NCBI RefSeq assembly: GCF_053078305.1 | Contig: NZ_CP166879.1 | DNA: 64,000 bases | Reading direction: 5' to 3' (one strand) | Shown: one piece after another, positions 49,440-49,672 of the stretch | Numbering within the stretch: position 1 is the stretch's first letter | How the letters are laid out: each line of letters starts with the position of its first letter | Notes under the pieces: generated by a model | Told to the model about the DNA's origin: nothing | The model's database searches: none | Seen by the model: only the letters and a program-made list of their open reading frames with translations | Translations under genes and position numbers: made by a program

Positions 49440-49463
49440 GAGTGTGTCCTGTTGGGAGTTTAA

Positions 49464-49665
49464 TGCCGGATAAGGCATTTTACGCCGCATCCTGTGCCTG
49501 ATGCGACGCTGGCGCGTCTTATCAGGCCTACAAATCCGAGCCGTAGGCCGGATAAGGCGTTCACGCTGCATCCGGCACCCGGAGCCTGAGGCGACGCTGG
49601 CGCATCTTATCAGGCCTACAAACCGAGCCGTAGGCCGGATAAGGCGTTTACGCCGCATCCGGCAT
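49464..49665. repeat. BIME cluster (about 5 REP units) between nrdA and nrdB
   Basis: Alternating gccggataaggcgtttacgccgcatccggca and tgcctgatgcgacgctggcgcgtcttatcaggcctac motifs in inverted orientation. Confidence 0.9.
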
Positions 49666-49672
49666 CTCAATA

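Follow-up and report, generated by a model that had tools for sequence, protein, structure and literature searches.

The spacer between nrdA and nrdB in the window (the whole 64-kb stretch of DNA that was analysed) is occupied by five REP units of alternating type and orientation, a cluster that by its sequence belongs to the BIME-2 class. The cluster is very probably best explained as a BIME-2 within the nrdA-nrdB-yfaE operon that would act in the mRNA as a stop-proximal block and in the DNA as a gyrase site, and whose size would change by recombination or through TnpA-REP. That REPs occur between cistrons has been recognised since the early 1980s. At the level of the locus the nrdA-nrdB BIME-2 has been known for decades and has been studied experimentally, so that the finding is correct but ordinary.

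Anatomy and class of the nrdA-nrdB cluster

The window is from Escherichia coli: a 501-bp query around the spacer matched 5,425 of 5,426 complete E. coli genomes, and in all rows among the matches listed the matching sequence sits between nrdB and nrdA. A preliminary description of this DNA had placed a large BIME cluster at 49440-49672, an interval that coincides exactly with the spacer between the nrdB start at 49439 and the nrdA stop codon at 49673-49675 (Table 1). At 233 bp, the spacer is identical in length to that of K-12 MG1655. The description had counted about five alternating REP units, and five were found, in the order Y, Z2, Y, Z2, Y. The array can be written Y-Z2-l-Y-S-Z2-l-Y, with the GTAG of the Y units on the plus strand and that of the Z2 units on the minus strand.

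The reference for typing the units was the pair of consensus halves of Rfam naRNA4, a curated covariance model of one Y-linker-Z2 unit; printed Y and Z consensus sequences were looked for in PMC3479197 and none was found. GTAGG/CCTAC is carried by four of the five spacer units and by both full units of the second cluster described below. The remaining unit, Y-a, is degenerate and without GTAG, adjoins Z2-a with a linker of 0 nt, and aligns to the Y half of naRNA4 with two non-canonical pairs. In a repeat search of the spacer, the tandem Y+Z2 unit appears as direct repeats of 48 and 45 nt with a spacing of 88/87 bp and an identity of 90-93%. On the mRNA, the UGA of nrdA is followed by 9 nt and then by the GCCGGAUG stem of Y-c, and the last REP ends 23 nt ahead of the nrdB AUG, leaving free an AGGA Shine-Dalgarno motif that lies between this REP and the AUG.

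The REP tail motif CTTATCMGGCCTAC is matched nine times in the 64-kb window against an expectation of 0.51, a count that none of 100 shuffles reached; four perfect matches fall in the nrdA-nrdB spacer, and one perfect match and one with a single mismatch fall in the second cluster. The head motif is matched 20 times against 7.3 expected, and no shuffle reached 20. Rfam naRNA4 (RF02564) matches 49546-49616 on the plus strand with 64.6 bits against a gathering score of 59.5 (E=6e-10), and the remaining units give weaker matches of 31.6-53.7 bits, under the threshold, with the neighbouring unit at 53.7 bits. As expected of REPs, the units are extragenic, lying between annotated CDSs, and occur in many copies per genome, the spacer query hitting a median of at least 37 places in each E. 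coli genome. The identification as a BIME is thus borne out by the repeat anatomy, by the enrichment of the tail motif, by the naRNA4 match, and by the alignment of the units to the Y/Z2 consensus. The K-12 RefSeq feature table lists no REP features.

Two classes of BIME are distinguished by Ton-Hoang et al. 2012 (PMC3333891): BIME-1 elements consist of y and z1 with a long conserved L linker that often holds an IHF site, and occur as single copies, and BIME-2 elements consist of y and z2 in tandem copies with short linkers and a copy number that varies between strains. The spacer contains inverse y/z2 units, linkers of 0, 7, 10 and 11 nt, and an 87/88-bp direct repeat; it has no z1 unit and no L linker, the longest linker being 11 nt. 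Judged by such features, both the nrdA-nrdB cluster and the yfaL-ubiG cluster are BIME-2. The likeness to the BIME-2 family (Gilson/Bachellier nomenclature, summarised in PMC3333891) covers the alternation of Y and Z2, the short S and l-type linkers, tandem repetition, copy-number variation among strains, and gyrase cleavage, with no essential difference except that the nrdB-proximal Y unit is degenerate.

The preliminary description had also attributed IHF binding to these elements, and the introduction of Ton-Hoang et al. 2012 (PMC3333891) does state that REP/BIME elements in general bind IHF. Interpretation of the clusters as BIME-1, that is, as IHF-binding elements of the RIB/RIP type, would however require y, z1, and an L linker with an IHF site, where z2 partners and linkers of 0-11 nt are found. 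What is shared with BIME-1 is the presence of Y REPs and membership of the extragenic palindromic repeat family. With one mismatch or fewer, the IHF consensus WATCAANNNNTTR is absent from 45915-51844 and from 55565-58401, so that neither spacer has one, and the table of Sutormin 2018 puts the nrdA-nrdB interval, together with a preceding 81-bp interval, under BIMEs2. A BIME-1 identity is therefore refuted at the sequence level and is very improbable for either cluster. Since IHF binding belongs to the BIME-1 L linker, and both clusters are BIME-2 with no such linker and no IHF consensus in their spacers, the remark on IHF does not apply to them.

The ORF listing includes a 453-aa ORF (48309-49670, TTG start) that reads across all five REPs. 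All 376 positions of the NCBIfam NrdB equivalog model are covered by residues 78-453 of this ORF, and residues 1-77 have no family match; the 77-codon upstream extension is therefore spurious, an ORF-calling artefact as the preliminary description had warned, and the 453-aa ORF was rejected as a coding sequence. The existence of the open frame is what speaks for a genuine N-terminal NrdB extension from the TTG at 49670. Against it, both the RefSeq and the K-12 annotations place the nrdB start at 49439, the ATG at that position has the AGGA motif a few nucleotides ahead of it, and the extension is altered or gone in strains with spacers of 146, 189 and 88 bp, of which 146 and 88 are not multiples of three. 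Together with the fit of the family model, these observations leave a real extension scarcely credible.

Table 1. Features of the nrdA-nrdB spacer, the second cluster, and related elements, in window coordinates
Feature	Position	Strand	Length, basis or remark
yfaE	48055-48309	-	
nrdB	48309-49439	-	
nrdA	49673-51958	-	
nrdA stop codon (UGA)	49673-49675	-	C-terminus ...SGACKI, then stop
nrdB true start codon (MAYTTFSQ...)	49437-49439	-	RefSeq and K-12 annotations, NrdB model
nrdA-nrdB intercistronic spacer with BIME-2 cluster	49440-49672		233 bp; gene ends
REP Y-a, degenerate, closest to nrdB	49463-49495	+	GTAG replaced by AATG; head CATCCTGT
REP Z2-a	49496-49531	- (5'-GTAG on - strand)	head and tail motifs with 0 mismatches; fits Z2 half of Rfam naRNA4 consensus
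Tail-to-tail linker AAATCCGAGCC	49532-49542		11 nt
REP Y-b	49543-49576	+ (5'-GTAG on + strand)	head/tail motifs, naRNA4 alignment
Head-to-head S linker ACCCGGA	49577-49583		7 nt
REP Z2-b	49584-49619	-	head/tail motifs, naRNA4 alignment
Tail-to-tail linker AAACCGAGCC	49620-49629		10 nt
REP Y-c, first REP after nrdA on mRNA	49630-49663	+	head/tail motifs
Spurious 77-codon upstream extension of nrdB ORF	49440-49670	-	reads REPs; residues 1-77 without family match
yoaM, 11-codon ORF antisense to nrdB start	49438-49473	+	annotated in K-12
Second cluster, REP Y	56423-56456	-	head/tail motifs
Second cluster, REP Z2	56468-56504	+	head/tail motifs
Second cluster, 13-nt Y-head fragment TTGCCGGATGAAT	56515-56527		insertion relative to K-12; alignment
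Solitary Z2-like REP GTAGGCCAGATAAGACGCATAAGCGTCGTATCTGGC	48007-48042	+	between inaA and yfaE end, 3' end of nrdAB-yfaE operon; motifs, Rfam

The second cluster and other REPs in the window

A second cluster, which the preliminary description had located after yfaL and credited with two to three units, lies where yfaL (plus strand, end at 56400) converges on ubiG (minus strand, stop at 56541), with gyrA next. It consists of a Y and a Z2 unit separated by an 11-nt linker, followed by a 13-nt Y-head fragment that may be the footprint of an aborted or decayed third REP. The repeat search returned no repeats over this cluster because its two units differ in type and are inverted, so that no 8-nt seed extends; the motif searches and Rfam did detect the units. 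Folds of the cluster beat shuffles on both strands (z=-4.3 and -5.6). Spacers at this locus measure 140, 127 or 60 bp, the 60-bp form being a single Y-like REP, and 705 genomes fall below 80% query coverage. Between strains, yfaL (gene at 52654-56400) is unusually divergent at its 3' end, with most genomes only 90-95% identical over 56280-56680.

Beyond the nrdA-nrdB spacer, REPs are found in at least three gaps of the window. A solitary Z2-like unit stands at the 3' end of the operon (Table 1), and we infer that it is probably the 35-bp interval that follows the nrdA-nrdB BIME-2 in the table of Sutormin 2018, where it has 0 cleavage sites. A REP-like palindrome, GTAGGTCGGATAAG...CATCCGAC, is present at 425-460, some 90 nt ahead of where nuoM is inferred to start (~550), and presumably belongs to the gap that separates nuoL from nuoM within the nuo operon.

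The surroundings of the operon include a variable segment at 43293-46078, between glpQ and the MFS transporter/inaA, that contains a 368-aa hypothetical ORF and a LysR regulator. At least 80% of a 2.9-kb query covering 43200-46100 is held in only 711 of 5,426 genomes, and K-12 has only the yfaH pseudogene there. The spacer region 49300-49800 is 100% identical to NZ_CP019944.1. Colinearity of the whole window with that record was rejected because the presumed nuoM reading frame contained stop codons on translation and by BLAST, the window being without its two ISVsa5 copies, differing from it at 43293-46078, and showing a 12-nt indel in yfaL; its coordinates transfer directly only for 46078-50000.

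Spacer variation in E. coli and other Enterobacterales

The strain-to-strain length variation expected for BIMEs was observed at both loci when spacer lengths were compared across strains, and it exceeds what the preliminary description had anticipated, about one-third of strains having an unrelated repeat, BoxC, between nrdA and nrdB. Alleles were surveyed in 30 rows evenly spaced over the ranking of 5,477 matching records. The spacer measured 233/234 bp in 11 of these rows, about 145-146 bp in seven, and 88 bp in nine; lengths of 226 bp and 189 bp were each seen once, and the remaining row was an unrelated short plasmid match. Among the 5,426 complete E. coli genomes, about 37% have five REPs and about a quarter have three, and at least 80% of the query for the BIME form is covered in 3,707. 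By alignment, the 146-bp allele is short of exactly one Y-l-Z2-S unit, which leaves it three REPs, and unit number differs between strains by whole Y+Z2 units; in the 226-bp allele one S linker is different. The allele of 189 bp, from E. coli Rb-3, comprises four REPs that belong to other subtypes (GCCGGATGCGGCGTGAGCGCCCTACCCGGCCTAC and short GTAGGCCGGATAAGCGAAGCGCATCCGGCA units) and resembles an atypical BIME.

The 88-bp allele has zero REPs and carries CCCTCTCCC-CTTGC-GGGAGAGGG-TTA-GGGTGAGGGG, which fits the intrastrand-triplex consensus of BoxC/PIT/TMECO, CCCTCNCCC-N3-6-GGGNGAGGG-N3-GGGNGAGGG (PMC4666352). BoxC shares the nrdA-nrdB gap with REPs but is unrelated to them in sequence; a direct search recovered the full 88-bp form from 1,684 of 5,426 genomes (31%), and the core of the allele is itself a repeat, with a median of seven places per genome. 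The BoxC/TMECO motif is absent from the window. The predicted fold of the BoxC spacer does not beat its shuffles (z=-1.06), and the principal hairpin, of 9 bp, begins about 29 nt after the stop. The 88-bp alleles of E. coli EC11 and of the ST131 strain 2017_APHA differ inside the motif (GGGTTAGGG versus GGGGACGGG). BoxC/TMECO loci are described as hypervariable and as having neither promoter nor terminator activity (PMC4666352). The length of the nrdA-nrdB spacer is a strain marker with three common alleles: five REPs, three REPs, and BoxC.

With regard to other Enterobacterales, a degenerate DNA pattern for the NrdB N-terminus yielded 120 loci from one-genome-per-species contigs, in which the NrdA C-terminus was located and the spacers were extracted. 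E. albertii has a 240-nt BIME-2 of five REPs with the same degenerate last Y, which implies that the array is older than the split between E. coli and E. albertii and that the BoxC allele is either derived or introgressed. Salmonella, most Citrobacter, Klebsiella, Raoultella, and Yokenella have a REP pair in a spacer of about 100-120 nt, most of the stems being unlike the Y and Z2 of E. coli, and paired BoxC-like elements are present in Enterobacter cloacae and Pseudocitrobacter. In Kosakonia, Buttiauxella, and Cedecea the spacer, 52-59 nt long, holds a plain GC hairpin with a T-run behind it; a similar hairpin with a weak T-run or none occupies the 42-67 nt spacers of Pantoea, Serratia, and Citrobacter freundii. 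All 87 Enterobacterales spacers compared have a helix of 5 bp or more that begins 0-14 nt past the nrdA stop, against 55% of shuffled spacers, and the z-score of the minimum free energy is below -2 in all 87 (median -4.2), in a comparison that draws on phylogenetically related species, takes shuffled spacers as its baseline, and covers the nrdA-nrdB gap only.

These distributions bear on whether the array is a neutral or selfish passenger, a BIME-2 that colonised a permissive gap and was kept there by TnpA-REP and recombination, with gyrase cuts and ribosome stalling as side effects. Such an origin would account for the presence/absence polymorphism, with BoxC in 31% of genomes, for the variable unit number, and for the occupation of the same gap by different repeat families in different species; it would also agree with the hypervariability and transcriptional inertness of BoxC/TMECO loci (PMC4666352) and with the REPs in other gaps of the window. 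It fits less well with the strong stem-loop kept within 14 nt of the nrdA stop in 87 of 87 species, including those whose repeat-free spacers of 42-67 nt have only a GC hairpin, often with a T-run, a pattern that suggests that the gap is constrained to be structured. An effect on nrdAB translation has also been reported, as cited in the RepRanger paper. A passenger with no function specific to this locus is thus possible, if unlikely.

Roles of the array in RNA and DNA

The preferred explanation, an array with consequences in both mRNA and DNA, begins with the fold of the spacer. In the mRNA sense the spacer RNA has a predicted folding energy of -120 kcal/mol (z=-5.1 against dinucleotide shuffles), and for the three-REP allele the fold has z=-5.5. 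Terminating ribosomes are said to stall where a stop codon has a REP within 15 nt of it, with down-regulation of translation. The REP stem is within this distance of the stop at nrdA (9 nt) and outside it at yfaL (22 nt). The nrdAB REP-containing transcript is, according to the RepRanger paper, a case reported earlier by Liang, Rudd & Deutscher 2015 (Mol Cell 58:431), and the spacer studied here is like their stop-proximal REPs in the position of its first stem. The effect nevertheless cannot be universal for nrdA, the REP being absent in 31% of E. coli genomes. A text search of the literature on the nrdA REP and tmRNA returned nothing relevant. REP hairpins are described in PMC3333891 as mRNA stabilisers, transcription terminators, and topological insulators.

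In the mRNA, the REP hairpins would form a stable block just past nrdA that hinders 3'-to-5' exonucleases as well as the terminating ribosome. Such a block could lower the output of NrdA, tune NrdA relative to NrdB, and protect the upstream mRNA.

At the level of DNA, the gyrase association that the preliminary description ascribed to BIMEs is matched by published cleavage at the nrdA-nrdB locus itself. Table DS3 of Sutormin 2018, with in vivo data from K-12/W3110, lists the nrdA>-nrdB> BIME-2 (202 bp) with 2, 3, 0, and 3 cleavage sites under Cfx, RifCfx, Micro, and Oxo, respectively, and also notes two cuts at nrdA-nrdB from Espeli & Boccard 1997. In the same study, gyrase cleavage was far more frequent in Y than in Z2 units, and blocking transcription raised the BIME-2 signal; the Y units of the spacer may accordingly be pictured as a transcription-independent gyrase site. 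The 81-bp BIME-2 interval just before nrdA-nrdB in that table, taken to be the yfaL-ubiG BIME-2 from its position and length, has 0 sites in all four conditions. Gyrase binding is thus not a property of every BIME-2.

The array may have arisen, and may change in size, by recombination between the 87/88-bp direct repeats or through TnpA-REP acting on those units that carry GTAG. TnpA-REP needs GTAG and a stem mismatch (Ton-Hoang 2012, PMC3333891), so that Y-a, without GTAG, should not be recognised and should be inert. Copy number (5, 3, or other) varies freely within an essential operon. Because 31% of genomes carry a BoxC spacer without a REP, any regulatory role can be neither essential nor REP-specific.

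On the opposite strand, yoaM has its stop codon within the degenerate Y-a unit. Translation of yoaM was demonstrated by Weaver et al. with a lacZ fusion, and they cite a start of antisense transcription that lies 174 nt upstream of it (~49264 in the window); RNA from this start would read the BIME in the orientation that matches naRNA4. A promoter scan of both strands of 49100-49900 found no sigma-70-like promoter, including for the cited antisense start.

The spacer has the same Y-linker-Z2 unit as the naRNA4 source REP325 (RF02564; Qian et al. 2015, PMC4550694), with one unit above the gathering threshold. REP325 lies between yjdM and yjdN and has six units with a longer linker, whereas nrdA-nrdB has two and a half units, a linker 6-13 nt shorter, and its best match antisense to the operon. 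The spacer might on these grounds be a source of naRNA4-type nucleoid-associated RNA, in which a BIME transcript, perhaps the yoaM-carrying antisense RNA that begins within nrdB, would give rise to Y-Z2 hairpin RNAs that bind HU and bridge cruciform DNA. The plus-strand score above the gathering value and the near-threshold score of the neighbouring unit agree with this, as do the cited antisense start, the detected translation of yoaM, and the report by Qian et al. 2015 (PMC4550694) of transcription from most REPs and of an HU-mediated condensation that depends on structure and not on sequence. The Rfam match is however automatic, both being BIME-2 units, and says nothing on expression or HU binding; in addition, the promoter scan was negative, nrdA is absent from the main text of Qian et al. 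2015 (PMC4550694), and the element is missing in 31% of strains. Production of a nucleoid-associated RNA from this spacer is, on balance, improbable. From the sequence, a naRNA-like or antisense role of the yoaM transcript is no more than conceivable; this transcript might read the BIME in the orientation that matches naRNA4 and affect the initiation of nrdB or act on HU.

The value of the cluster as a discovery is small, the BIME-2 being already present in published tables of gyrase cleavage and in work on REP-dependent translation. For annotation, the 77-codon nrdB 'extension' and similar REP-derived peptides are false ORFs, and a BIME-2 is not to be labelled an IHF site. A hairpin recurs within 14 nt of the nrdA stop in all 87 species although the element that forms it differs, a modest hint, open to testing, that structure counts for more than the identity of the repeat. 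A tentative and somewhat doubtful extension of this idea is that the nrdA-nrdB gap is a slot selected for a strong stem-loop right after the nrdA stop, into which unrelated elements have been recruited in turn. If so, the recruits would be a plain terminator-like hairpin, species-specific REP pairs, BIME-2, and BoxC, and the turnover of elements would hide a conserved function, for example in the NrdA:NrdB ratio, transcription attenuation, or 3'-end stabilisation.
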